Source: an uncultured virus (IMG/VR IMGVR_UViG_3300024999_000005)
Taxonomy: Duplodnaviria; Heunggongvirae; Uroviricota; Caudoviricetes
DNA length: 64,000 nt
Strand: one strand, 5' to 3'
IMG/VR virus record: IMGVR_UViG_3300024999_000005
The notes beneath the pieces were generated by a model. It was not told the origin of the DNA. It saw only the letters and a list, made by a program, of their open reading frames with translations, and searched no databases. Made by a program: the position numbers and the translations under genes. Every line of letters begins with the position of its first letter. Within the stretch, counting starts at the first letter, position 1. Positions 25,515 to 46,226 of the stretch are shown here, in pieces.

Positions 25515-26999
25515 ATGAAGCGCGGAGCAGTTTATATTAGGGTTTCCCACCTAAAGGATGACGGAGTAAGTCCGGAAACGCAAATGGAAAAGGCGCAACT
25601 ACAAGCAAGTCTATCCTCCATCGACATCGTGAAAGTCTATGAGGACTTGGACATATCAGGCCGATCCGCAACTAAAAGAATAGGCTTTCAGCAACTAATC
25701 GAAGACGTAAAGGGCGGTAAATATGATGTTGTCTTAGTCTACCGCCTTGATCGCTTTGCCCGAAACGTCCGCGACTTCCACCACTACGTCGAAGTCCTAG
25801 AAAAAAATAATTGTAGCCTAATATCTATCAGTCAGAGCATTGACACTGGCTCCCCCACTGGTCGCTTGCTCAGAAATATTTTGATAGACTTTGCCCAGTT
25901 TGAGTCTGAAATGATTTCCGAGCGTGTACGTGATAACATGGTCCAAAACGCCAGGCGGGGATCCTGGAACGGTGGCCAAAAGGCTTATGGCTATGACTGG
26001 GACGATGAACAAAAACTTTTAGTACCAAACGACAACGCAAAATGGGTACTGCTTATGTTCGAAGAATACGCTTCAAATCCGGGTGCAAATCGCATTCGTA
26101 ACCTTTTATATCAGAATGCCGTACAAGCCCCCTCTGACGGCAAATGGTGGGCTCCTACAACAATTCGATATATACTTAGGAACTCTGTTTACATCGGTAA
26201 AATAGAATACGCCGGTGAGGTTGTGGACGGCAAGCATCAGCCTATTATTTCTCAGGATATTTTCGATCGGGTGCAGCACCTTTTAAGCAAGAACAGCGAA
26301 ATGGCACCGCGCAGCAGGGATAGTCAGCACCTACTTTCCGGACTTTTAATTTGTCCTTACTGCGGTCGCCATCTCCAAGCTAGATTTAACGGCAAGAAAC
26401 GAATACGCCGGTATATGTGTTATACCAGGATTAACATGGGAGTTAATGAGTGCAAATGTAAAATACTTGACGCTGATAGTTTGGAAACAGAAATAATTAA
26501 TACTGTACTTACACTTGGCGATTCATTAGGCTATTTTGAGGATGCCAAACAGTCGCTAAAAGAAGTCGCGACAGCTGCAGCAGAAGAAAAGCCTATTATA
26601 GATAAAATGGAAAAAGAAAAAAGGCTTAAGAAAATAAGATCTGCCATGAAAGACTTATTTAAAGATTATTATGAAGAAAAAATTATACCACGGGAGCAAT
26701 TTATGGAAATCAATAAGCAATATCTTGAGGAAGAAAGTCAGTTAGTAAACTATTTAGAAAAGTTAGATCAGATAGATAACCATTTCGCCGCCCAAGCAGC
26801 CGACATAGATCTACTACAAAGACAGCTATCTGCTTTAAGAACAGCTTGGACGCTAATGACCTTCGAGGAAAGGAAAATGTCCCTGAGGGATATTATTAAA
26901 TCTATTTCGCCATATACTGATTATATTGAAATGGATATATTTTTTAGAAAGATAGAAATAATCCCTCAAAAGAATACTGAAACAACTATGAGCTTTTAA
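25515..26999 (+). CDS. Large serine recombinase (phage integrase)
   Basis: YIRVS catalytic motif, DLDISG, RLDRFAR, recombinase domain, LLSGLLICPYCG Zn ribbon, coiled coil. Confidence 0.96.
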   Translation: MKRGAVYIRVSHLKDDGVSPETQMEKAQLQASLSSIDIVKVYEDLDISGRSATKRIGFQQLIEDVKGGKYDVVLVYRLDRFARNVRDFHHYVEVLEKNNCSLISISQSIDTGSPTGRLLRNILIDFAQFESEMISERVRDNMVQNARRGSWNGGQKAYGYDWDDEQKLLVPNDNAKWVLLMFEEYASNPGANRIRNLLYQNAVQAPSDGKWWAPTTIRYILRNSVYIGKIEYAGEVVDGKHQPIISQDIFDRVQHLLSKNSEMAPRSRDSQHLLSGLLICPYCGRHLQARFNGKKRIRRYMCYTRINMGVNECKCKILDADSLETEIINTVLTLGDSLGYFEDAKQSLKEVATAAAEEKPIIDKMEKEKRLKKIRSAMKDLFKDYYEEKIIPREQFMEINKQYLEEESQLVNYLEKLDQIDNHFAAQAADIDLLQRQLSALRTAWTLMTFEERKMSLRDIIKSISPYTDYIEMDIFFRKIEIIPQKNTETTMSF

Positions 27000-27000
27000 A

Positions 27001-27034
27001 AGAAAAGCCCTCCTTTAACCAGGAGGGCTTTTCT
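27001..27034. terminator. Bidirectional intrinsic terminator between integrase and tRNA
   Basis: agaaaagccctcct-ttaacc-aggagggcttttct, perfect 14-bp stem. Confidence 0.9.
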
Positions 27035-27040
27035 AATGAG

Positions 27041-27115
27041 TCGGGATGACATGATTCGAACATGCGACCTCACGGTCCCGAACCGTGCGCTCTAGCCAAG
27101 CTGAGCTACATCCCG
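27041..27115 (-). tRNA. tRNA-Pro (anticodon CGG), CCA not encoded
   Basis: CGGGATG/CATCCCG acceptor stem, D-arm, CACGG-TTCGGGA-CCGTG anticodon arm, GTTCGAAT T-loop. Confidence 0.95.
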
Positions 27116-27121
27116 GGGAAT

Positions 27122-27169
27122 GGTGTCTATCGGGTGCAAATGCTCTACCAAGTCAACCCAATAGACACC
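27122..27169. other. Candidate attP of the serine integrase
   Basis: 48-bp imperfect inverted repeat (13/14 outer pairs), central dinucleotide at 27145-27146, next to the integrase. Confidence 0.7.
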
Positions 27170-27286
27170 TAAAGATCCCTTGTTTTGTGCCGCTTCCGAC
27201 GGTACTCTTATTATATCATAAATAATTTTCTCTATACCTTCCTTACCTGAACATATTTTAAGACAAAAAAAATAAACCCTTTCGGG

Positions 27287-27643
27287 TTATTTCAAGTGCT
27301 CCAATTTTTCTTTTATCTCGTTGTATGCCGATCCGTTCTCGCTGTCTGGTTTCATATCCCAGCCACGGTCATAATTTATCTCTTCCACTCCGTCCTTAGT
27401 GATCGTCAACTTTGAGATTCTTCCGTCGTCAATGCCCATGTCGCTCGGATTATCAAAAACTTTGCCTGAGAATTTATAGTCGCCATAATGACCGTTAACG
27501 TAACTATTTCTCTGTTGCTCAATTATTACCTCATTATTATCAGTAAACACGCTAACTACATTGCCGGCCGCGTTCCCCAGCGTCAGAACGCCGCAAAGTA
27601 TTAATCCTATAATTTTTGTCGCAGCGGGTACTTGTATGAGCAT
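27287..27643 (-). CDS. Secreted or membrane-anchored protein
   Basis: N-terminal hydrophobic segment; C-terminal INYDRGWD motif. Confidence 0.6.
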   Translation of the reverse strand: MLIQVPAATKIIGLILCGVLTLGNAAGNVVSVFTDNNEVIIEQQRNSYVNGHYGDYKFSGKVFDNPSDMGIDDGRISKLTITKDGVEEINYDRGWDMKPDSENGSAYNEIKEKLEHLK

Positions 27644-27645
27644 TA

Positions 27646-30288
27646 TTAATCCCCCTTTTTATTTTTCTTTTGGGCTTTAGCTTCTTCCTTTCGCTCCTCT
27701 CGCCAAGCTTCATCCCGTAGCGTTATTTTCCGCTTGCCCTGGATGTAGTCAGTAACCTCCTTCCAGTGCCGGCCGAAATATTCTGAACATTGCGATCGCC
27801 GATAACTCCGATCCTTAACCGGCCTTGGTGGCGCTGTCATATGGCAAATAAACGCTGGCAAACTATCAGCACTCGGCAACTCCATCTTGCAAGCAGCAAC
27901 CCAACGCTTTGGCAGTTGTTCGTATAGCTTTCTAGCCTCCAAGGGGGTTAACTTTTCCGCATGGTCGATGAAAGTTTTCTGGAACTCAGTTTTAAAGAAG
28001 TTGAAAAACGGCCCGCCTGCATAAATACCAGCCTTGTATTTTCCAAACTGCTCTGCACTGTGAGCAAGAAAAATCATCTTGTTTCGATACTTCCGGGCCT
28101 CCACTCCTATTTCACCGTCCAGGAGTGGCCCAGTACCCTCTAGGCAGTTGTGCGGTTCGTCGATGATTGTATAAAACGGCCTGCGTTTGCTCTGTGGAGT
28201 ATCCAAACGACTTAAAGTAGCTAACCATATTTTAGCCATCAGGAAACTTGCCACGCGGTTAACTCCGTCCTTGCCAAGCTCAGCTTTGGGTATCCTGAGC
28301 CCTACGAAGTACCCACCCTCATCCATCATTTTGCGGAAATCCAAAACAGGCTTGCCATCCTGACCTAACTTTTCCTGCTGTAAAAATATATTTACTAAGG
28401 TTCGCTTACCAGCCAGCAAATTAAGCCGGTCTAAAATGGGCTGTACTAAAGTTTTGTCGGAGCCCTTGACGGCTTTTTGCTGTAACTCCCGCAAAACATC
28501 AACAACCTCCGACTGCTGCTGAATAGTCTGGTCCTGCAATAACTCCTCTCGGTAAACTGGTGATGATAAAGCCAGCACTACATCTAGCAACCCACGGCGC
28601 GGATCTGTCAGCACGCCTTTTCCGACAGGTGATAGAAAGTATTCCATCCTATCTGAAAACTCGCTGCTGGCTAGTTGGTTTATAAACGTATATATGTAGT
28701 CAGTCATTCGCTCTGCAGCGTCCAAAGCGGCTAGTTCGTCGCTCTCCCCCTGCATCCCACGCAAAGCAACATCAGTCAGTGTCAAAGGTATCGGCCAGTG
28801 CTTGCAGCCAAAATCTAAGTCAAGTATTTTGTGATCAGGTGTATCGCTTGGTAGACTATCCCTGACAGCGTCAATAGCGGCACCATCGGCCATGTCGAAA
28901 AGGAATACCGTTCTGTTATTTTTAACACCTTCGACAGCAAGCACAATCCCCCTCCCTGTTTTACCACATCCCATATTTCCGTAGTCAATCTCTGTTTTGC
29001 ACTCAATATCTGGGTCGCTGATAGGTAACATGGCCTGTCGTGTTACTCCCCTATCTGTAACTTTCCCTAATGGTATACCAACAGTACCGAACAGTTCTGC
29101 AGGCAGGGTAATTTCCTGGAGCTTAATCCCGTTGATCTGCGGATAGTCCTCCTGGAGTTCCCGGCCGGGTATTTGTATCAGTTTCCCAGACTCTGCAGTC
29201 GATAAAATACTGTAGTTAAATTTCAGCTTTGGCAGTCGCTTGGTCGTCATGGCTTCGATAGCTGCAGCTTTCTTTTTCCGGTTTTTTACCTCCCTTGCTT
29301 CAAATTCATTATCCCCTACAAGGTCAGCAAAAGCTCCTGCCAGAGTGCGGGCAGTTGATTCTCTGCTACCTCTATCGTCAGATTGTGCCACTATCCAAAG
29401 ATAGGTACGCATGGCACCCATCCCACCCTTACGCTTTGTTGCCGATGTTAAATTTTCTATCGCAAACAGCCCTGCCTCCGGGTCTACTTCTTTTTTGGCG
29501 TAACGGTTCTCTTGTTTGTCGGATTTGATCATGTCGCCAAGCCCCACCATAACCTCCTGCATCAACTGCCCTGTGCAGGTCAATCCTGAACGTAAATAGC
29601 CGCTAGCATCACCGTTCCGTTTCAGCGGTTGCCGTCCGTTCCTGAGCATCTCCCAGGCCTCTTGATAAGTAGCGTTCCAATCAAGGCGGCCCACAGGATC
29701 AAAAAATATAAATACTTTTGCCTTGTCGGTGCCGTGCAGGGTCTTAACTGCCTGCAGTAGGGACGGCAAAGGCAGGTTGTTTTTACTGTCAGCAAGTAAC
29801 GAATACATATCATGCTTACGATAGACTAACTCATATACAGTAGCTTTGTCGGGCTCCCAGGCTTCGCGGCAATCACCGTCAACAGTGATAGTTGACTTAT
29901 CCCATATGCCACTTAACCTGCGTATCCAACTATCAACACGATCTCCCGGCACTGTCAGGAGGAAATCAATACTGCCCTGGGTGTAGTCAATCTCCCATGT
30001 TGCGCGGTCAGACTGCCGGTATCTTAACTTCCATCCGTCCTCAAAATAAAACCTATCCAGAGGTATTTTAAAAGCGTCTGTTATGGATTTAGCTATGTCC
30101 TCCGTGTGCCAGTTCCGGGCCGATGTGTCCGGACGGACGCGGATAACCCTATGTGCAGGAGCGACTATCTGGTAATGACTACGGAGGTTAAAACGCTGTT
30201 TTTGCTCATTCTCGTACCATTCAGCGTCTATGTAGTCAGTCTGATTATTTTTCGGTACCAGGGCAGTTGACTGAAAAAACTTTTTCAA
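27646..30288 (-). CDS. VirB4/TraD/HerA-FtsK-superfamily ATPase (~880 aa)
   Basis: GNMGCGKT Walker A, IIDEPH Walker B, EARKY, LAHS; start moved to TTG 30288 after an AGGTGA RBS. Confidence 0.8.
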   Translation of the reverse strand: MKKFFQSTALVPKNNQTDYIDAEWYENEQKQRFNLRSHYQIVAPAHRVIRVRPDTSARNWHTEDIAKSITDAFKIPLDRFYFEDGWKLRYRQSDRATWEIDYTQGSIDFLLTVPGDRVDSWIRRLSGIWDKSTITVDGDCREAWEPDKATVYELVYRKHDMYSLLADSKNNLPLPSLLQAVKTLHGTDKAKVFIFFDPVGRLDWNATYQEAWEMLRNGRQPLKRNGDASGYLRSGLTCTGQLMQEVMVGLGDMIKSDKQENRYAKKEVDPEAGLFAIENLTSATKRKGGMGAMRTYLWIVAQSDDRGSRESTARTLAGAFADLVGDNEFEAREVKNRKKKAAAIEAMTTKRLPKLKFNYSILSTAESGKLIQIPGRELQEDYPQINGIKLQEITLPAELFGTVGIPLGKVTDRGVTRQAMLPISDPDIECKTEIDYGNMGCGKTGRGIVLAVEGVKNNRTVFLFDMADGAAIDAVRDSLPSDTPDHKILDLDFGCKHWPIPLTLTDVALRGMQGESDELAALDAAERMTDYIYTFINQLASSEFSDRMEYFLSPVGKGVLTDPRRGLLDVVLALSSPVYREELLQDQTIQQQSEVVDVLRELQQKAVKGSDKTLVQPILDRLNLLAGKRTLVNIFLQQEKLGQDGKPVLDFRKMMDEGGYFVGLRIPKAELGKDGVNRVASFLMAKIWLATLSRLDTPQSKRRPFYTIIDEPHNCLEGTGPLLDGEIGVEARKYRNKMIFLAHSAEQFGKYKAGIYAGGPFFNFFKTEFQKTFIDHAEKLTPLEARKLYEQLPKRWVAACKMELPSADSLPAFICHMTAPPRPVKDRSYRRSQCSEYFGRHWKEVTDYIQGKRKITLRDEAWREERKEEAKAQKKNKKGD

Positions 30289-38277: not shown

Positions 38278-39216
38278 TTATTCCTGGTTATCGTCGTCTT
38301 TGTTGCTAAACAGCTTGTCTCCAGGGCCACATCTCCGATGCTCTTCCTGGATATCTTCGGTAAGCATATTCACGTAACGACGAGTCATGTCAAGAGTGGA
38401 ATGCCCCAGTATCTTTTGCAGGGCAAATACTTGTCCACTATTTCGCAAAAACATAAGCGCGAAGGAATGCCTAAAAATATGAGGCCTGACCGATACTTGT
38501 AGACCAGCCAGCTTACCATATTTTCTGAAGCTTGTCCTAATTGATGCAGTTGATATACTTTCCGCTCCTTTTGCAAAAAATATTTTGTTTGTATCGGTCA
38601 GGGTCTGAGCGATAATCCACTGCTTGAATAACTTTTTAGTGTTTTTGCCAAAAGGTACTTGGCGTTCTTTGTTGCCTTTGCCCACCACCTTTATCAAGGA
38701 TTTATTGAAGTCGATATCCTTGATACAAATACTTAATGACTCTGATATGCGCAGGCCAGTGTCGATAAGCAATTGAATAAGCATACTATTTCGTTGGCCG
38801 GCAAAGGTTTCCTGTGAAATAACTGATAGTATTGCCTGCACTTGCTCACCAGTATAGCTGTTGATTATGGCATGTCTGACCTTCAGTGCTTTTAACTTTC
38901 GGGCTGGGTTATCCGGTATCGTTTCAACGACTTCATGGAGATACCTAAATAAACCTCTGATTGACTTTATGGAGTTATTTATAGCTGAAATACTTAGCTT
39001 TCCTGGCTTGCCGTCCATTTTCGGACGGTTGCGCAGATAGAGCAGGTAGTCATATATGATTTGCTGGGTGATTTCTTCAATGGTTAGTATTCCAGCGTCG
39101 GTCAGAAACTTTTTGAACTGCCTAAGTGAAACGCGGTACCACTCCAAGCTGTTGACGGAGTACCCTTGTCCTCCAAGGTACGTCATTAGATCTTTCATAG
39201 CCTTTTCTATGTCCAT
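38278..39216 (-). CDS. Tyrosine recombinase (XerC/D-like)
   Basis: TGLRISE, GKGNKER, PHIFRHSFA, LGHSTLDMTRRY. Confidence 0.95.
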   Translation of the reverse strand: MDIEKAMKDLMTYLGGQGYSVNSLEWYRVSLRQFKKFLTDAGILTIEEITQQIIYDYLLYLRNRPKMDGKPGKLSISAINNSIKSIRGLFRYLHEVVETIPDNPARKLKALKVRHAIINSYTGEQVQAILSVISQETFAGQRNSMLIQLLIDTGLRISESLSICIKDIDFNKSLIKVVGKGNKERQVPFGKNTKKLFKQWIIAQTLTDTNKIFFAKGAESISTASIRTSFRKYGKLAGLQVSVRPHIFRHSFALMFLRNSGQVFALQKILGHSTLDMTRRYVNMLTEDIQEEHRRCGPGDKLFSNKDDDNQE

Positions 39217-40279: not shown

Positions 40280-41575
40280 CTACAAATTTCGGTACTTTTC
40301 TATCAGCTGTCGTTGCCGCTCTGCCTGGTTCTTGATTTGGGCAAACGACAATCCTTTGCACAGGTGGTCATTTTTAAGGATGCACATGGCCATCCTACGC
40401 CAAGTAGGAGCATAGTGTTTGCTTTCAATATCGCCGTCAAGGCTATCTTCTATTTTCCTGTACCTAACGACACGTTTATCCTTATTCCCTCTGGTAGCTA
40501 TCTTATCCGTTACAACAGCGGAAGGGGGCAGTTTGCTAAAGCATTCACTTGGCAACCCACACCCGTTTCTATTCCAATATCTCATAAAACGGATAAACCG
40601 GCTAACATAGTTCTCCCTGGTTTCGGGTGGAAGTGATGCAAGTAAAAGCTTTGTGTAGCTTTTCCACGTATGCCCGGCCGGTAGCTGTACCTGACGATAC
40701 CCTAATGCCTTAGTACCACAATAAATATTACCAAAGTTTGCCCCGGATACACGATTAACTACCCTGGCCCATGTCTCGGGTTCGATAACCCGGAACAGAT
40801 TCAGCCCGATCCGTTGGTCATCACCATAGGGCTGGCAAATCCGCATATCGTGGATGCCGACACCGGCCTTGTAAAACAGATCATAGAGTTTGTTATATTC
40901 CCACCCGTTTTTACCATTGGCGGTCCAAATATCTTCAGTTCGCCAATCGTAAATTGGATAGCAATTGTAAAGATTCTCGTCTATCTTCGTTGTCCAGTTT
41001 ATGCCGCTATAAGTCTCTTTACTGTCGCTTACAATTGTTCTGAATCGGTTAAGGCTTTCATCGGAACGTATGCCTACCAGGCAAGCAGTCTTTTCTCCAC
41101 CAGAAAACCACTTGCCGAACTTCGGAACGAATTCTTCAAATTCCATTCTGTACTGATAGAACGGAAAGAATTCCTGATCTTTTATAACCGGATAGTCAGG
41201 AAATTGCCTAATCCATCTATCTTCTAGTCCTGGCTCCCAGCAACACCAGAACGGCTGATAGACTGACACAGCATTGCGCAGATTTAGCGGCAAGCATGCC
41301 CAGTATGGTTCTATCAAGTCAGCATTGTCCGTAAGCATGGTATGTATGTAATTTATGGTTTCTTGATACTGACCTTCCAGATCAACAACAAGAACCCCGA
41401 TTTTATTCGTTATCCCGTTTTTACGCATATAATCAAGGACAAGGTTCAAAACAACCCCGCTGTCCTTGCCGCCGGAAAAGGAAACATACACCTTTTCGAA
41501 CTCTTCGAAAATAGTTTTGACGCGTTCCAGTGCTGCTTCATACACGTTCTTTTTGAGATACTTTTTCTTACTCAC
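40280..41575 (-). CDS. PAPS-reductase/DUF3440 protein (IbrA-like)
   Basis: SFSGGKDS PP-loop, GIRSDESLNRF, PIYDW, MRICQPYGDDQR, ILKNDHLCKGLSF. Confidence 0.92.
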   Translation of the reverse strand: MSKKKYLKKNVYEAALERVKTIFEEFEKVYVSFSGGKDSGVVLNLVLDYMRKNGITNKIGVLVVDLEGQYQETINYIHTMLTDNADLIEPYWACLPLNLRNAVSVYQPFWCCWEPGLEDRWIRQFPDYPVIKDQEFFPFYQYRMEFEEFVPKFGKWFSGGEKTACLVGIRSDESLNRFRTIVSDSKETYSGINWTTKIDENLYNCYPIYDWRTEDIWTANGKNGWEYNKLYDLFYKAGVGIHDMRICQPYGDDQRIGLNLFRVIEPETWARVVNRVSGANFGNIYCGTKALGYRQVQLPAGHTWKSYTKLLLASLPPETRENYVSRFIRFMRYWNRNGCGLPSECFSKLPPSAVVTDKIATRGNKDKRVVRYRKIEDSLDGDIESKHYAPTWRRMAMCILKNDHLCKGLSFAQIKNQAERQRQLIEKYRNL

Positions 41576-43008
41576 AGCGACATAATCAACTCCTTTAGAC
41601 GGTCTTTTTTATATTTGACCTTTTCAACCTCCCTCCGGAAACTATTTACAGTATTGCCCTTTTGGGCTAAGTTTTCAGCGATTCTTTCGTCAATACTGTT
41701 CGAACAGCGAATATCAATATAGGTTACCTTATTGGTCTGGCCAATCCGGTGATTCCGATCTTCCGACTGCAGTCGTTCGCTGTATTTAAACGAGTTATTA
41801 TAGAAAATAGTATAATGTGCCTCATTTAAGGTTAGTCCATGCCCGCCGGTCTTGGCGGTACCAACAAAGAATCTATTTCCGGCATGAAATCTAGCTTCTT
41901 CGGCGTTACGTTGCTTTTCTGATAACCCACCATGATACAAACTAAACCCCTGGTCGGCAAAATTGGCCTGCAGCATATCGGCGATCTGTTGGATGTCATA
42001 TGTATATTTTGCCCAAATAATAAATCTTGTGTCACGCGGTACGCTATAGATCGTTTCGAGTAAGGTGCTCACCCGGTCATGCTCAAACCTCATTTTCTGA
42101 TAATGACCCCGACTAATCCTCCGATTCCAAAACCCGCAGACGATACCCTGCAGAGCAGTGAACAGTCTAAAGATCGGAATAGAATCGTCATCGTCCTCCA
42201 GGAGATCGGCAAGGATTTCCTCCTTTGCCCACTCATAATGCTGCCGCTGTTCGTAACTCATACTGAAATACCTAGTTTCGTAAAGTTTCGACGGAAGATC
42301 AAGGCATTCCTCCTTAGTAACCTGGTAAATGTAAGGTTTTATTTTCGCGGCCAGGTACTCAACATTGTGAGCACGAACAATCATGCCCGGATACTTTTCC
42401 GAATACTCCAGGTGATTCGCCGCGAAAGAGTAAAACGACTCGTAACCCAAAATCTTGGGAGATAAAAAACGCATTTGCGCAAATAGATCAACTACTCCCT
42501 GAGACAGCGGAGTACCGGTTAAGATGAGTCGGTACCGTGCGCGTTTGCATAATTCCGTAATCCGCAACGTCCGCATTGAGCGGTGACCCTTGATGTATGA
42601 CGATTCGTCCAAGATAACCATCGTACTCTCGGTAATAAGCTTATTTACAGTCAAGACCACGCGGGTACTGCTACTCATTGACTCAATCCCTACAACATAC
42701 CAAGGCACGCTTGGGACGTTGCTCTCATTTGTCCTGTCTCCAAATACGCAAATGTCACTGTCTATACAGTCAGTATGCTTGAGTATCTCCTGTCTGACCG
42801 TTTCCTTTAGGCTAACCGGGCAAAACCAGATTACCTTGTCAATTTTGGTTTTGCGTCGGTCAACCAGTTCAATTGACATGCGCGTTTTGCCAGTACCCAT
42901 GTCGCAGAATAGACCGCCAATACGAGACGGCAGCACTTTCTCAACAGCAGGTACTTGGTGCGGCAACAGTTCGGTTCTAAGATTCACACTTAACATAGAC
43001 CAGATCAA
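41572..43008 (-). CDS. SNF2-family helicase/ATPase
   Basis: DMGTGKT, LDES, LTGTP, GGHGLTL, QSEDRNHRIGQ. Confidence 0.93.
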   Translation of the reverse strand: MIWSMLSVNLRTELLPHQVPAVEKVLPSRIGGLFCDMGTGKTRMSIELVDRRKTKIDKVIWFCPVSLKETVRQEILKHTDCIDSDICVFGDRTNESNVPSVPWYVVGIESMSSSTRVVLTVNKLITESTMVILDESSYIKGHRSMRTLRITELCKRARYRLILTGTPLSQGVVDLFAQMRFLSPKILGYESFYSFAANHLEYSEKYPGMIVRAHNVEYLAAKIKPYIYQVTKEECLDLPSKLYETRYFSMSYEQRQHYEWAKEEILADLLEDDDDSIPIFRLFTALQGIVCGFWNRRISRGHYQKMRFEHDRVSTLLETIYSVPRDTRFIIWAKYTYDIQQIADMLQANFADQGFSLYHGGLSEKQRNAEEARFHAGNRFFVGTAKTGGHGLTLNEAHYTIFYNNSFKYSERLQSEDRNHRIGQTNKVTYIDIRCSNSIDERIAENLAQKGNTVNSFRREVEKVKYKKDRLKELIMSL

Positions 43009-43177
43009 GTTTGATACGAGGGTGATCTGGTCTAATTAAGCAAAAGCAGGTGACTCCTATTCTTCCGATGTTCTGACAACCGCTAAATTTACCGACGGTT
43101 TTGTATTTATCGCAGGTTTTAGCTAAATTGCACTCTTCGTGCGCGTCATAAAGTCCGCCGTCTTCTTTTATGAGCAT
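42977..43177 (-). CDS. Small Cys-rich protein
   Basis: GGAGGGG RBS; 66 aa. Confidence 0.45.
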   Translation of the reverse strand: MLIKEDGGLYDAHEECNLAKTCDKYKTVGKFSGCQNIGRIGVTCFCLIRPDHPRIKLDLVYVKCES

Positions 43178-43189
43178 GACTTACCCCTC

Positions 43190-44326
43190 CTAATCCCTAA
43201 ATTCATCTGCAATATTCATATCAATAGGAACCTCCAAGACGGGAGGCTTGCCGATGGCAACCACGCAATCTTTTTCCGCTGGCGGCGCGACAATTACGGT
43301 AAGTATGCTCTCCCATGCCTGCCGTGCTAAATCTATTGCCTTCTGCGCACCTGACGAGATCCTAAAGTCATACATTTGTGCGAAGTCCAGTACCTCGGCA
43401 AAATGCTCGGGGGGAACCACAACATCGGGTTTGTCATATCGACTACCGTTAATACCCTTTGCAGCACGGTAGAAGTCTTCTTTCTTGCTCCACCGTACCA
43501 CTAGGTGACCAGCATAACCGCCTGTAGTGCGGCACATAATCCAGCGGGTATGCTCTGGCTCATATGTGCCGTCGATGGCCTTCTGCCGTGTCTCATCGTC
43601 AAAGATTCTAACAGGGAACCCAGCAGCAAGCAGTCTGTGCCCTGCCTCAGATGCACGATCTGCCGGAGTGCCGTTGTGCTTCGCTATTTTTCTTCTCCAG
43701 CACAGCCCGGTCCAATCCATACTCAATTTTTCCTTTACAATTTCCCGAAAGTCGTCGCGCTTCTCGGGAAAATATATTTCCATGCTTTTTTCAAGTGCTC
43801 GGATTTCCGCTACAGTTTCGGTGACGGTGTTTTCAGGCCTGACAGTCGCCTCTATTTTAACAGCGTCGGTAAGCACCTGTGGCGGCTTATCCTTCTGCTG
43901 TTTGGCAGTGTTGAGCAGTAGAGTTTCAAGCATCCGCAATGACATATCACGGCGGTCAATCCACCAACTCGCTGACTCGATCTGTTGTAGGTGGTCAAGT
44001 CCGGTCATTAGATCAGCGCGTTGCTCATCGGTGATATTTCCATGCAGGAATCCTTCTGCCCGGAGCAATATCTCCTGGCGTATTCGCTCTGCCCAGGCCA
44101 CTTGTTTTTCAGTTCCATCGAGTGCTGGCAACTCCATTTCTTTCGCTGCCTCGATAGCTTCGGCGGTGGCCTTTTCACGCTGGCGTTCAAGTTCCGCATG
44201 GTAACAGGTGTGGCATAACTTGTTTGGTTCGACGTTCTCCAGTCGCCACTCCCGTAGTTTGTGCTTACCAATAAGGTTAACTGTTTCCTCATGCCCGCAA
44301 GCACGGGTAACGTTGTATTGGGCCAT
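43190..44326 (-). CDS. Zn-finger plus LxGxEKQxxWA protein with possible HARP-like C-terminal domains
   Basis: ACGH...CHTC; LDGTEKQVAWAERIR; GGAGGTG RBS. Confidence 0.75.
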   Translation of the reverse strand: MAQYNVTRACGHEETVNLIGKHKLREWRLENVEPNKLCHTCYHAELERQREKATAEAIEAAKEMELPALDGTEKQVAWAERIRQEILLRAEGFLHGNITDEQRADLMTGLDHLQQIESASWWIDRRDMSLRMLETLLLNTAKQQKDKPPQVLTDAVKIEATVRPENTVTETVAEIRALEKSMEIYFPEKRDDFREIVKEKLSMDWTGLCWRRKIAKHNGTPADRASEAGHRLLAAGFPVRIFDDETRQKAIDGTYEPEHTRWIMCRTTGGYAGHLVVRWSKKEDFYRAAKGINGSRYDKPDVVVPPEHFAEVLDFAQMYDFRISSGAQKAIDLARQAWESILTVIVAPPAEKDCVVAIGKPPVLEVPIDMNIADEFRD

Positions 44327-44353
44327 GCTTGACACCTCCAACGAACTCTAAGA

Positions 44354-45211
44354 TTAAATATCCCCAAACCTTAAGGTCTGCTTAAAATTAATCGGCAGTA
44401 CAAGGTAGTCATTGCCAGCTCCGCCGCCATTTGATTTGGCAACGCGACGGTATAGACTTCCTTCGGGCCAACTTCTAAACCCACGCGAACTATCAAAAGC
44501 ACCGCCCCAATTTATTTTGATGAGCATATGCGGGGCTTTATCGCGATCCATTTCCTCAAAGCAGTTAGTGCCTTTCTTGCTCTTAAAGAAACGACCAAAC
44601 TTAAACCCCATGTTGCCAGAAAAAGAGACATTAAGACTGCCTTGAAGTTCGGTATCGGCTGCATAATCAAATGCTTTTAACAACCTGTCCTCAGTGAAAA
44701 TTAGAGACAGATTGGGCCTGTACTTGCCGCCGTCGTTAACGAGATACTTTCCGTCATCAAGCTTGAAAGTATTCTTGCCTAAGTGGAGCCCTTTTGACTC
44801 CAAAAACAACGGTATGGACAGTTTTAAAATCTGCTCGTAAGCATCCTGAGCGTCCAAATCGACAGGAATGCCATAGCGGTTTAAGTGGCTTATGACGGTT
44901 TTTTTGGAGTAATAATGACCGAAAGAATTAGTAAAATAGTGGTGTACTTTACCTGTTCGATATCCTTCATACACCTTTTTGCGAAGCTCTTCAAAGGGTG
45001 CCAACTCAACGAACAATCCTTTTGAAACTTCACAAATTTTTTCATATACATCTGTATCATCCAAGTTGAACTCAAAACCGTAATTTTTGAGGATCTGTTC
45101 AACACTATCTCTCCCAAATCCTCTTTCTCTGAAGCATTCGTTGATGTAGTAGTGGACTTCTCCGGCTTCAAAACCAGCGAATACCCTGACACATAATTCA
45201 TCAAAATTCAT
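44354..45211 (-). CDS. Hypothetical protein with an internally duplicated N-terminal unit
   Basis: G.VH.Y...F......V...L..YG....LD..D.YE.I occurs twice. Confidence 0.7.
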   Translation of the reverse strand: MNFDELCVRVFAGFEAGEVHYYINECFRERGFGRDSVEQILKNYGFEFNLDDTDVYEKICEVSKGLFVELAPFEELRKKVYEGYRTGKVHHYFTNSFGHYYSKKTVISHLNRYGIPVDLDAQDAYEQILKLSIPLFLESKGLHLGKNTFKLDDGKYLVNDGGKYRPNLSLIFTEDRLLKAFDYAADTELQGSLNVSFSGNMGFKFGRFFKSKKGTNCFEEMDRDKAPHMLIKINWGGAFDSSRGFRSWPEGSLYRRVAKSNGGGAGNDYLVLPINFKQTLRFGDI

Positions 45212-45277
45212 AATTACCCCTCCCCTATTTTCAATCCCACCACCCCCGCCCGTATCTAAACGGGCAGAGATAGTAGA

Positions 45278-45463
45278 CTAAAGTTTCATAATGGCCTCAC
45301 GAATCCATAATATTGCCACATCCAGGTTGGTAAAAATAAGTGACTTTTCTCTACCAACTGGAAACTCAGCTTCAATTGCCACATAAAGAGCATTCAGCGC
45401 TTTTTTGGTTTCGGGAACTTTTGCCAATTGTTCTTCTGTGGGTTTAATATCTAGATTAATCAT
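45278..45463 (-). CDS. Acb2/Tad1-like helical-hairpin protein (candidate cyclic-nucleotide sponge)
   Basis: PTEEQ...L...I...FPVGREKSL.FTNLD.A..W...AI pattern; AAGGAGGTG RBS. Confidence 0.6.
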   Translation of the reverse strand: MINLDIKPTEEQLAKVPETKKALNALYVAIEAEFPVGREKSLIFTNLDVAILWIREAIMKL

Positions 45464-45494
45464 ATGTATCACCTCCTTAGCTTAATCTTGCGGA

Positions 45495-46226
45495 CTAAAA
45501 CGGCCAGTCCACAGCGACAATCTGCCTCTCCTTCCAATTGGCGTTGTGTGTTGCTACTACCACCGCCCCAATCTTTGGATCAAAGGTGGCTGCAGCACCG
45601 GCAGCGGATCCGTGCGCTTGATGTAGGGCTAAGCCATACCTCCAAATAGGTGCCCGTCCACCGATGACCAACAGGGATCCGCGGGGAATTTCCGGCATGA
45701 CTGGCAACGGATCTGATGGTGTACAGGGGCCATCTACGCCAATACTCCAAAATACGGGACCTTCTACTGTAATCGGCCTGGTGGGATTGAATTGCTCTGC
45801 AAGTTCCCAGCGTGCTCGGGCATCGGCAACGCTCTGTTTAAATCTGTCTGTGGGATTCGGGATGTTCAAAAACCCTTCCACGATAGCATCCCAGACATGG
45901 TATCCAAGAGTAAAACCGGCAGGCATTTTTGGGTATTCGTCTTGCTCCGAGACTACGCCCATGACAAATATGCTGTCCTCCTCCACATTATCCGCGACAA
46001 TGTGGGCATAGCGCAGATTGTTGGCACTGCTGTGAGTAGACATATGCTTAATTAAGACAATGCCATCACACAGGGAAACGCCACCTTCGGTATAGCTCCA
46101 CTTTCCGTTCTTGTGGTATTGTCCTTCCCAATTGATGTAGTCGATTTTCTCTACAGCAGGTTGTCCGTTCAACTTCAGTACTGCGACAACAGCAGTTCCG
46201 TCAGCGTCGTTTACGCTTAATTTCAT
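45495..46226 (-). CDS. Csx3/Crn3-like ring-nuclease domain fused to an unknown N-terminal domain
   Basis: LLVIGGRAPIWRYGLALHQAH...TFDPKIGAVVVATH matches the Csx3 pattern VVISGRGPIW...H...YDPRLGAVVV.SH. Confidence 0.8.
   Translation of the reverse strand: MKLSVNDADGTAVVAVLKLNGQPAVEKIDYINWEGQYHKNGKWSYTEGGVSLCDGIVLIKHMSTHSSANNLRYAHIVADNVEEDSIFVMGVVSEQDEYPKMPAGFTLGYHVWDAIVEGFLNIPNPTDRFKQSVADARARWELAEQFNPTRPITVEGPVFWSIGVDGPCTPSDPLPVMPEIPRGSLLVIGGRAPIWRYGLALHQAHGSAAGAAATFDPKIGAVVVATHNANWKERQIVAVDWPF

Follow-up and report, generated by a model that had tools for sequence, protein, structure and literature searches.

A 48-bp imperfect palindrome at 27122-27169 of a 64-kb stretch of uncultured groundwater phage DNA (64,000 nucleotides, referred to here as the window) is very probably the attP site of the large serine integrase encoded next to it. 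From the sequence comparisons presented here, its target would be the D-arm of a host tRNA-Pro(CGG) gene with a short D-loop, and the tRNA gene lost upon integration would be replaced by a complete tRNA-Pro(CGG) that the phage carries beside the site. The assignment of the palindrome as a serine-integrase attP, made in the original prediction, is supported by homology to an integrated element whose integrase is 70% identical and in which the corresponding site is split at its centre.

Organization of the att region

The window consists of phage DNA throughout, with genes for baseplate J, an amidase endolysin, DnaB- and UvrD-type helicases and DNA methylases, and with a lysogeny block comprising an HTH repressor-like gene and an IrrE-type peptidase. 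All three Pfam domains of the integrase, Resolvase (PF00239, 2e-36), Recombinase (PF07508, 3.2e-19) and Zn_ribbon_recom (PF13408, 9e-12), score above their cut-offs, and residues R9 and S11 of the catalytic region are invariant in an alignment of six relatives. The 290-bp gap 3' of this gene holds, in sequence, a hairpin, the tRNA, six bases (27116-27121), the palindrome, a -10 box and a terminator (Table 1).

Table 1. Features of the att region, with window coordinates and the basis of each assignment
Feature	Position	Strand	Basis
Large serine integrase, 494 aa	25515..26999	+	Pfam domains
Perfect 14-bp hairpin between the converging integrase and tRNA genes	27001..27034		Inverted-repeat scan
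Complete tRNA-Pro(CGG) with 'long' D-loop (GGCTA)	27040..27115	-	ARAGORN and Rfam
Predicted attP half-site P' (would stay with the tRNA and integrase gene on integration)	27122..27144		Match to Desulforadius junction
Predicted central crossover dinucleotide, AG on the minus strand and CT on the plus strand	27145..27146		Symmetry centre
Predicted attP half-site P (would come to lie beside the host 3' tRNA part, at the far prophage end)	27147..27169		Match to Desulforadius junction
Extended -10 box TGATATAAT, pointing across attP into the tRNA	27210..27218	-	Read from the sequence
Terminator of the upstream minus-strand gene (27287-27643), bounding the att region	27275..27288	-	Terminator-like site

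The tRNA-Pro(CGG), predicted from the outset to lie intact six nucleotides from the palindrome on the same strand, is called by ARAGORN as the sole tRNA of the window and is matched by the Rfam tRNA model at 62.5 bits (E 2.2e-12). Bacterial tRNA-Pro(cgg) genes from the class containing Desulforadius share 96% identity with it. The repeat scan likewise recovered the 48-bp palindrome, whose 14-nt arms (27122-27135 and 27156-27169) are 93% complementary (13/14) around a 20-nt spacer, and the whole site is mirrored about the central AG at 17 of 23 positions. As had been noted, its centre reads as a tRNA D-loop on the minus strand (...ACTTGGTAGAGCA..., compared with GCTTGGCTAGAGCG in the D-arm of the tRNA). 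When the whole window was scanned for inverted repeats with 14-nt arms, at least 13 matches and a 0-30 nt spacer, only two places were found, namely the integrase terminator (in three overlapping registers) and the attP palindrome. First-order Markov simulations of the window gave a mean count of 0.45 such repeats, 16 of 20 containing none, and the position of the palindrome, in a 290-bp gap right after a serine integrase gene, makes a chance origin very unlikely.

The hairpin between the converging genes is fully complementary over its 14-nt arms, with a 6-nt loop, and resembles Rfam leader terminators at sub-threshold scores only; it is likely to be a two-way terminator for the integrase gene and the tRNA. 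The predicted extended -10 box is present in the sequence. It is absent from the output of the promoter scan, which demands a -35 hexamer, and no such hexamer is found here.

Copies of the same phage, 99-100% identical, occur in viral and metagenome contigs, as does a second phage whose integrase is 86% identical. The tRNA-Pro(cgg) of this second phage is placed as in the window, and beside it lies a diverged palindrome in which the centre TGGTAGAGCATTT (tRNA strand) is kept, with a TGCTATAAT box beyond the palindrome at a position like that of the -10 box in the window. This palindrome went unreported by the inverted-repeat scan at the settings used for the window; a symmetry scan placed its best symmetry centre at the same AG, with 13 of 20 mirrored positions.

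An integrated relative in Desulforadius tongensis

The integrated relative was found in one bacterial genome, that of Desulforadius tongensis DSM 29799 (G002), which encodes an integrase 70% identical to that of the phage across all 494 aa. The contig that carries this gene (C52, locus L003) ends 105 nt past the integrase stop, within the 3' end of a group II intron (4527-4597 of L003, minus strand; Rfam RF00029, 45.5 bits), and the start of a second contig, C25 (L133 1-90), was taken by eye only as the 5' end of the intron. In this element a group II intron lies between the integrase gene and the carried tRNA, breaking the assembly there.

Beyond the intron, C25 contains a hairpin and an intact tRNA-Pro(cgg) at 124-201 and, about 85 nt from this gene, the first 21 nt of a second tRNA-Pro, ending ...TTTGGC. 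In the sense of the tRNA, this 5' fragment continues through AGAGCAT into an arm resembling P' of the window (15 of 23 positions identical). Upstream of the fragment is a promoter, TTGACT...TGCATAAT, which is kept before intact tRNA-Pro genes in two other genomes. On a third contig, C12, an arm resembling P (14 of 23 positions identical to the window) is fused to the 3' 57 nt of a tRNA-Pro. A search of the Desulforadius DNA with the tRNA gave two matches at E <= 1e-8, the element copy and the fragment, and no other. The predicted destruction of the host gene by a crossover in the tRNA D-arm, and the arrival of a whole tRNA-Pro(CGG) behind the host tRNA promoter, are thus both seen in the Desulforadius element, and apply to the phage by homology.

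ARAGORN called only the element copy at the C25 junction and no tRNA gene at the C12 junction with the 3' fragment. The latter (L135 1510-1568) still scores as a partial tRNA in Rfam, at model positions 8-63 only (32.2 bits), owing to the likeness of the P arm to a D-arm. An annotation pipeline might report such a junction of P arm and tRNA as a tRNA or a pseudogene.

Genes for TraG/VirD4, topoisomerase III, RadC, SSB and a ParM-like protein lie beyond the C12 junction, so by its gene content the Desulforadius element is conjugative in type and is not the window phage. When the 91 ORFs of the window were compared with the element contig C52, only the integrase and an IrrE-like peptidase had relatives there; one further ORF of the window, with a DnaB_2 domain, hits a gene of the C25 host flank (L184). 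The outer flanks of the two junctions carry FeoB genes on one side and TusA, an AIR-synthase-like gene and a penicillin-binding protein on the other.

The empty site and the point of crossover

An empty site is present in genome G062, where a single 3-kb locus contains both flanks around an intact short-D-loop tRNA-Pro(cgg). Its feoB-side flank is 69% identical to C12, its tusA/AIR-synthase-side flank is 72% identical to C25, and the last 60 nt of its tRNA are 98% identical to the C12 fragment. Since flanks and tRNA match both Desulforadius junctions, the element has inserted into this tRNA gene.

The attP and attB sites were rebuilt by script from the two Desulforadius junctions and two models of the crossover were compared. 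Placing the crossover on the AG of AGAGC gave an attP with 20 of 23 mirrored positions, matched by the arms of the window at the 14/23 and 15/23 positions given above, and an attB that forms a valid short-D-loop tRNA-Pro(cgg); the core common to attP and attB in this reconstruction is 5 nt, AGAGC. A crossover at GC, 3 nt upstream, in a host with a long D-loop was rejected, with a symmetry of 8/23 and window arm matches of 5/23 and 7/23. AG is the symmetry centre of the window palindrome, of its counterpart in the 86% relative and of the rebuilt Desulforadius attP, and the rebuilt sites and the symmetry of the window agree on the crossover originally predicted at 27145-27146 (plus-strand coordinates). 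The AG reading needs a lost host tRNA with a short ...GGCAGAGCG D-loop, a form that is present in G117 and G120; the nearest empty site, that of G062, has T at the D-loop position where Desulforadius has C.

Geometry of attP and attB

For the A118/LI integrase, the motif for the zinc-ribbon domain occupies half-site positions 16-24 of attP, whereas in attB it is displaced 5 bp towards the centre (PMC3783163). We set positions 13-23 of attP against the tRNA half-sites at 12 shifts. A shift of 5 bp inward was the best of the 12 in all five attP/attB comparisons (22, 22, 20, 17 and 17 of 44, where about 11 of 44 are expected by chance), that is, the outer motifs of attP recur in the tRNA 5 bp nearer the centre. 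Each score combines four half-site pairings, which are not independent. For the window pair, 50 of 5000 shuffles reached its score at a shift of 5, and 502 of 5000 did so at any of the 12 shifts.

D-loop forms and a possible role of the additional base

Two natural forms of tRNA-Pro(cgg) occur in the class of Desulforadius, a long form (GGC-N-AGAGC) and a short form (GG-Y-AGAGC). All 30 of the host tRNA-Pro(cgg) genes most like the phage tRNA have the long form, in a set biased towards that form because the phage tRNA was the query. The short-form D-arm motif gave 45 pattern matches in 43 of the 162 genomes of the class. In 44 of these matches the next base is G, as in an intact tRNA; the remaining one, the Desulforadius fragment, has A there, as in attL. 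Thirty loci fetched for this motif comprised 27 intact short-form tRNA-Pro(cgg) genes, the Desulforadius locus and two loci without a tRNA call (contig edge or N in the sequence). No integrase relative was found in any of the fetched loci.

In Desulforadius the destroyed gene is of the short form and the carried gene of the long form. More generally, all three elements of the D-arm type (the window, the 86% relative and Desulforadius) carry a long-form tRNA and have attP centres that fit the short form. The attP of the window has an exact 11-nt run around AG in common with short-form GCTTGG genes (G063 and G067), compared with a shared run of only 6 nt with the phage's own tRNA; genomes with a GCTTGG short-form tRNA are candidate hosts. 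The extra D-loop base lies directly 5' of AG, which shifts the left half-site by 1 bp, and in the AG register the phage tRNA keeps 5 of 20 target positions in the left arm and 17-20 of 20 in the right arm. At shift 5, the left half of this tRNA scores 2 of 22, as against 11 of 22 for the short form. It is plausible from these comparisons that the extra base keeps the phage tRNA from serving as attB, and this is the weakest link in the proposed scheme. The 'altered' D-loop of the original prediction is indeed one nucleotide longer than that of the target, but it is an ordinary natural form, found in every one of the 30 best-matching host genes.

A less probable reading, with about one chance in four, would retain attP and the tRNA-Pro(CGG) target and deny the D-loop base any protective role, the carried tRNA being the allele of a former host; self-recombination would then be blocked otherwise, for example by sites only ~50 bp apart, or be tolerated. 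The prevalence of the long D-loop among the best-matching host genes and the 96% identity of the phage tRNA to long-form host genes are in keeping with this, and the AG of the phage tRNA, at 27093-27092, is about 53 bp from the attP centre, presumably too close for intramolecular synapsis. However, a short distance is no bar to recombination between two phage genomes, the long form is carried by all three elements although their attP centres and the one destroyed host gene fit the short form, and the left arm of the phage tRNA is out of register (5/20 in place, 2/22 against 11/22 at shift 5).

Folding of the palindrome as RNA

As RNA, the attP palindrome (27118-27173) folds more strongly on the tRNA-sense strand, where mismatches become G-U pairs, and the same is observed for the 86% relative. 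A second role of the palindrome in the leader transcript of the tRNA is possible. That it is chiefly an RNA hairpin in the tRNA leader, for processing or stability, or else a repressor operator, and not a recombination site, is very improbable. In keeping with such a hairpin are the G-U pair that the arm mismatch forms on the tRNA-sense strand, the predicted fold of -25.9 kcal/mol (z -6.2) on that strand as against -20.0 (z -4.7) on the other, and the corresponding values of -28.6 (z -5.7) and -15.2 (z -1.7) in the 86% relative, and the promoter-like box would transcribe it. The strand bias nevertheless amounts to two or three base pairs, the hairpin has no T-run after it and matches no Rfam family, and in the integrated relative the break in the corresponding sequence falls precisely on its centre, with each half joined to half of a tRNA gene.

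Search for a lysogen of the phage

The junction of this phage with its host was sought in several collections. With a pattern for the 14-nt arm, 119 stretches were found in viral contigs; among the 125 loci screened, only six matched beyond the 14-mer, all in the attP form, and these are copies of the same phage. A megablast search of the phage collection with the window found no match. In public contigs of four groundwater metagenome runs only the attP form was seen, with one contig spanning the whole stretch, and none of the loose ends listed lay at 27145/27146; contigs cannot show rare forms and so are uninformative on integration. Junctions of the kind by which the original prediction was to be checked are present in the Desulforadius relative, as a split tRNA-Pro(CGG) with an AG centre, and no lysogen of the phage itself was recovered in these searches.

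In two of the runs (X2 and X4), compared over 26400-27900 of the window, the phage contigs break inside the tRNA, near 27065-27094. The tRNA-Pro genes of the community share words there, so att regions that carry a tRNA are prone to assembly breaks.

Occurrence in the integrase clade

The breadth of the arrangement was assessed in 12 integrase relatives, 30-100% identical and with at least 150 nt of downstream sequence. In nine of them a complete tRNA gene lies on the opposite strand, no more than about 170 nt away, which suggests that the layout is a habit of the integrase clade and not a one-off. The converging tRNA is tRNA-Pro(cgg) in the window, the 86% relative, Desulforadius (across the intron) and G090; tRNA-Val(gac) in G281, L222 and L224; tRNA-Val(tac) in L226; and tRNA-Gln(ctg) in L229. 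It is absent in L227, G208 and G029; in G029, whose integrase is 44% identical, the nearest tRNAs are separated from the integrase stop by about 840 nt, and no clear junction can be made out. Four further loci were uninformative, as their sequence stops at or within the integrase gene or within the tRNA. A 5' fragment of the same tRNA species lies beside the whole copy in four of the nine (Desulforadius, G281, L226 and G090), and G095, outside the integrase-based count, likewise has a 5' tRNA fragment. The tRNA is broken in the T-arm or T-loop in G281, L226, G090 and G095, and a palindrome follows the tRNA directly in L224 (15 + 20 + 15 bp) and, in a longer form, in L222.

These counts bear on the scarcely credible alternative that the phage has another host target, its tRNA being an ordinary codon-supply phage tRNA and the likeness to the D-arm coincidental: many phages do carry tRNAs for other reasons and the window also encodes a tyrosine recombinase, but against it stand a converging whole tRNA in nine of 12 relatives, a fragment of the same species in four of those nine, and the 11-nt run shared with short-type tRNA-Pro genes, which has its centre on the axis of symmetry.

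It is about an even question whether this clade of serine integrases, in phages and conjugative elements, specialises in tRNA genes, with a spare tRNA kept near attP, the host promoter taking over its expression and small changes at the crossover, in the window the single extra D-loop base, protecting the spare from its own integrase. The targets under such a specialisation would be the D-arm of tRNA-Pro, the T-arm of tRNA-Pro, the T-loop of tRNA-Val and perhaps tRNA-Gln.

Two groups of loci show variants of the layout. In G090 (L173 1281-1466) and G095 (L174 1156-1341), with serine integrases 33-34% identical, a tRNA-Pro(cgg) with a long D-loop is cut in the T-arm, and about 50 nt further is an entire tRNA-Pro(cgg) whose D-loop is short and whose acceptor stem differs; the layout is that of the window with the roles of the long and short forms swapped. 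Integrases that are 40-47% identical have a whole tRNA-Val adjoining (L185 2435-2612, L222 2974-3119, L224 2976-3116 and L226 2995-3160), followed by a palindrome with a T-loop-like centre (L222 and L224) or by a 5' fragment of the host tRNA-Val (L185 and L226).

Proposed mechanism

By homology with the Desulforadius element we infer the same target for this phage, whose tRNA would be expressed and needed. In the proposed scheme, attB would be the D-arm of a short-D-loop host tRNA-Pro(CGG) gene (...TTGGTAGAGCG), and the integrase would cut attP and attB at AG, where the D-loop meets the D-stem. As AG is non-palindromic, the orientation of integration would be fixed, and as attP and attB match only in a short core, the tRNA would be rebuilt at neither junction and the host gene would be destroyed. 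The integrated order would then be the host tRNA promoter, ~21 nt of the host tRNA, AG, the P' arm, 6 nt, the phage tRNA-Pro(CGG), the hairpin and the integrase gene. Placed behind the host promoter, the phage tRNA would be transcribed from it with a longer leader and so replace the lost gene. Before integration, it would probably be served by its own promoter, the extended -10 box on the far side of attP. Because each arm of a serine-integrase attP has to be read in the attP mode, such a site presumably could not hold half of a tRNA, and a complete tRNA gene would have to be carried separately.

Relation to known systems

The closest parallel is the tRNA-dependent lysogeny of actinobacteriophages (Fionnbharth, Cluster L and Gaia; Guerrero-Bustamante and Hatfull 2024, PMC10865867). 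These phages use tyrosine integrases, have a core of only about 10 bp in common with the host tRNA gene, and supply a cognate tRNA that is needed for lysogeny. The present system is similar in that attB overlaps a host tRNA that is rebuilt at neither junction, as found in the Desulforadius relative, and in that the carried tRNA has the anticodon of the disrupted gene, being tRNA-Pro(cgg) in the window, the 86% relative and Desulforadius. The integrases described there are lambda-like tyrosine integrases with arm-type sites and the attB lies in the anticodon loop and 3' half, whereas here we find a large serine integrase, a simple 48-bp attP, a D-arm crossover and a spare tRNA 6 nt from attP, a distance that would land the spare directly behind the host tRNA promoter. 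The term 'serine integrase' is absent from the text of PMC10865867. With its serine recombinase, the present system would work like tRNA-dependent lysogeny without being a member of it as originally defined.

Compared with the integrases of the A118/LI, Bxb1 and phiC31 type (Rutherford et al. 2013, PMC3783163), the present one has the same three domains, an imperfectly symmetric attP of ~50 bp, a non-palindromic central dinucleotide and an outer motif that in attB sits 5 bp further in towards the centre. Those integrases target protein genes or intergenic DNA, whereas here the target would be a tRNA gene whose loss is mended by the carried copy. A mark of serine systems, attL and attR joined at the attP centre with few shared bases, is found in the 70% relative and is expected for the phage by homology.

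Classical attP sites of tyrosine integrases, which restore the tRNA, are reportedly treated by Williams (2002). The present system resembles them in that a tRNA gene is targeted and a displaced tRNA fragment marks one end (Islander, PMC4383910). Theirs, however, hold the 3' (rarely the 5') part of a tRNA and rebuild the gene at the junction (PMC4383910), whereas here the longest exact run shared with a tRNA is 11 nt and there is a separate whole gene instead.

Serine integrases have been viewed as enzymes that leave tRNA genes alone, a position stated outright in the Islander paper (PMC4383910), and the word 'tRNA' is absent from the main text of a large survey of serine recombinase targets (PMC10083194). 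In the open-access literature we found no paper on a serine integrase with a tRNA D-arm crossover or a replacement tRNA; the supplements of large surveys (Durrant 2022 and ProBord 2026) may list cases of serine integrases at tRNA genes. A figure legend of ProBord 2026 indicates that integration-site classes are split by integrase type. In the literature covered, a phage copy standing in for a destroyed host tRNA has so far been reported for tyrosine integrases only.

The present case illustrates how a tRNA gene can be used by a serine integrase, through a whole spare gene placed where the host promoter would drive it. It also offers a natural test of how strictly half-site register is read, at the level of one base, which bears on the use of these enzymes in genome engineering, and it provides predicted attP/attB pairs for little-studied anaerobic Firmicutes. 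If the specialisation of the clade is true, it would amount to tRNA-dependent lysogeny run by serine integrases, and the elements would swap tRNA alleles between bacteria.

Further observations

Contig C210 of genome G131 contains an identical pair of short-D-loop tRNA-Pro(cgg) genes, at 129421-129495 and 165482-165556 (L175 and L176), 36 kb apart, and another element may lie between them. No close integrase relative was found in this genome, the best being 37% identical and on another contig. Within the window, a tyrosine-family recombinase, XerC/D-like with SAM-type N-terminal domains, is encoded at 38278-39216 on the minus strand, 11 kb from the serine integrase; it may act in dimer resolution or at another site. 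A run of minus-strand genes at 40280-46226, between the lysogeny and lysis regions, has PAPS-reductase/DUF3440, SNF2-helicase and Cas_csx3 domains and may be a DNA-modification or counter-defence cluster.
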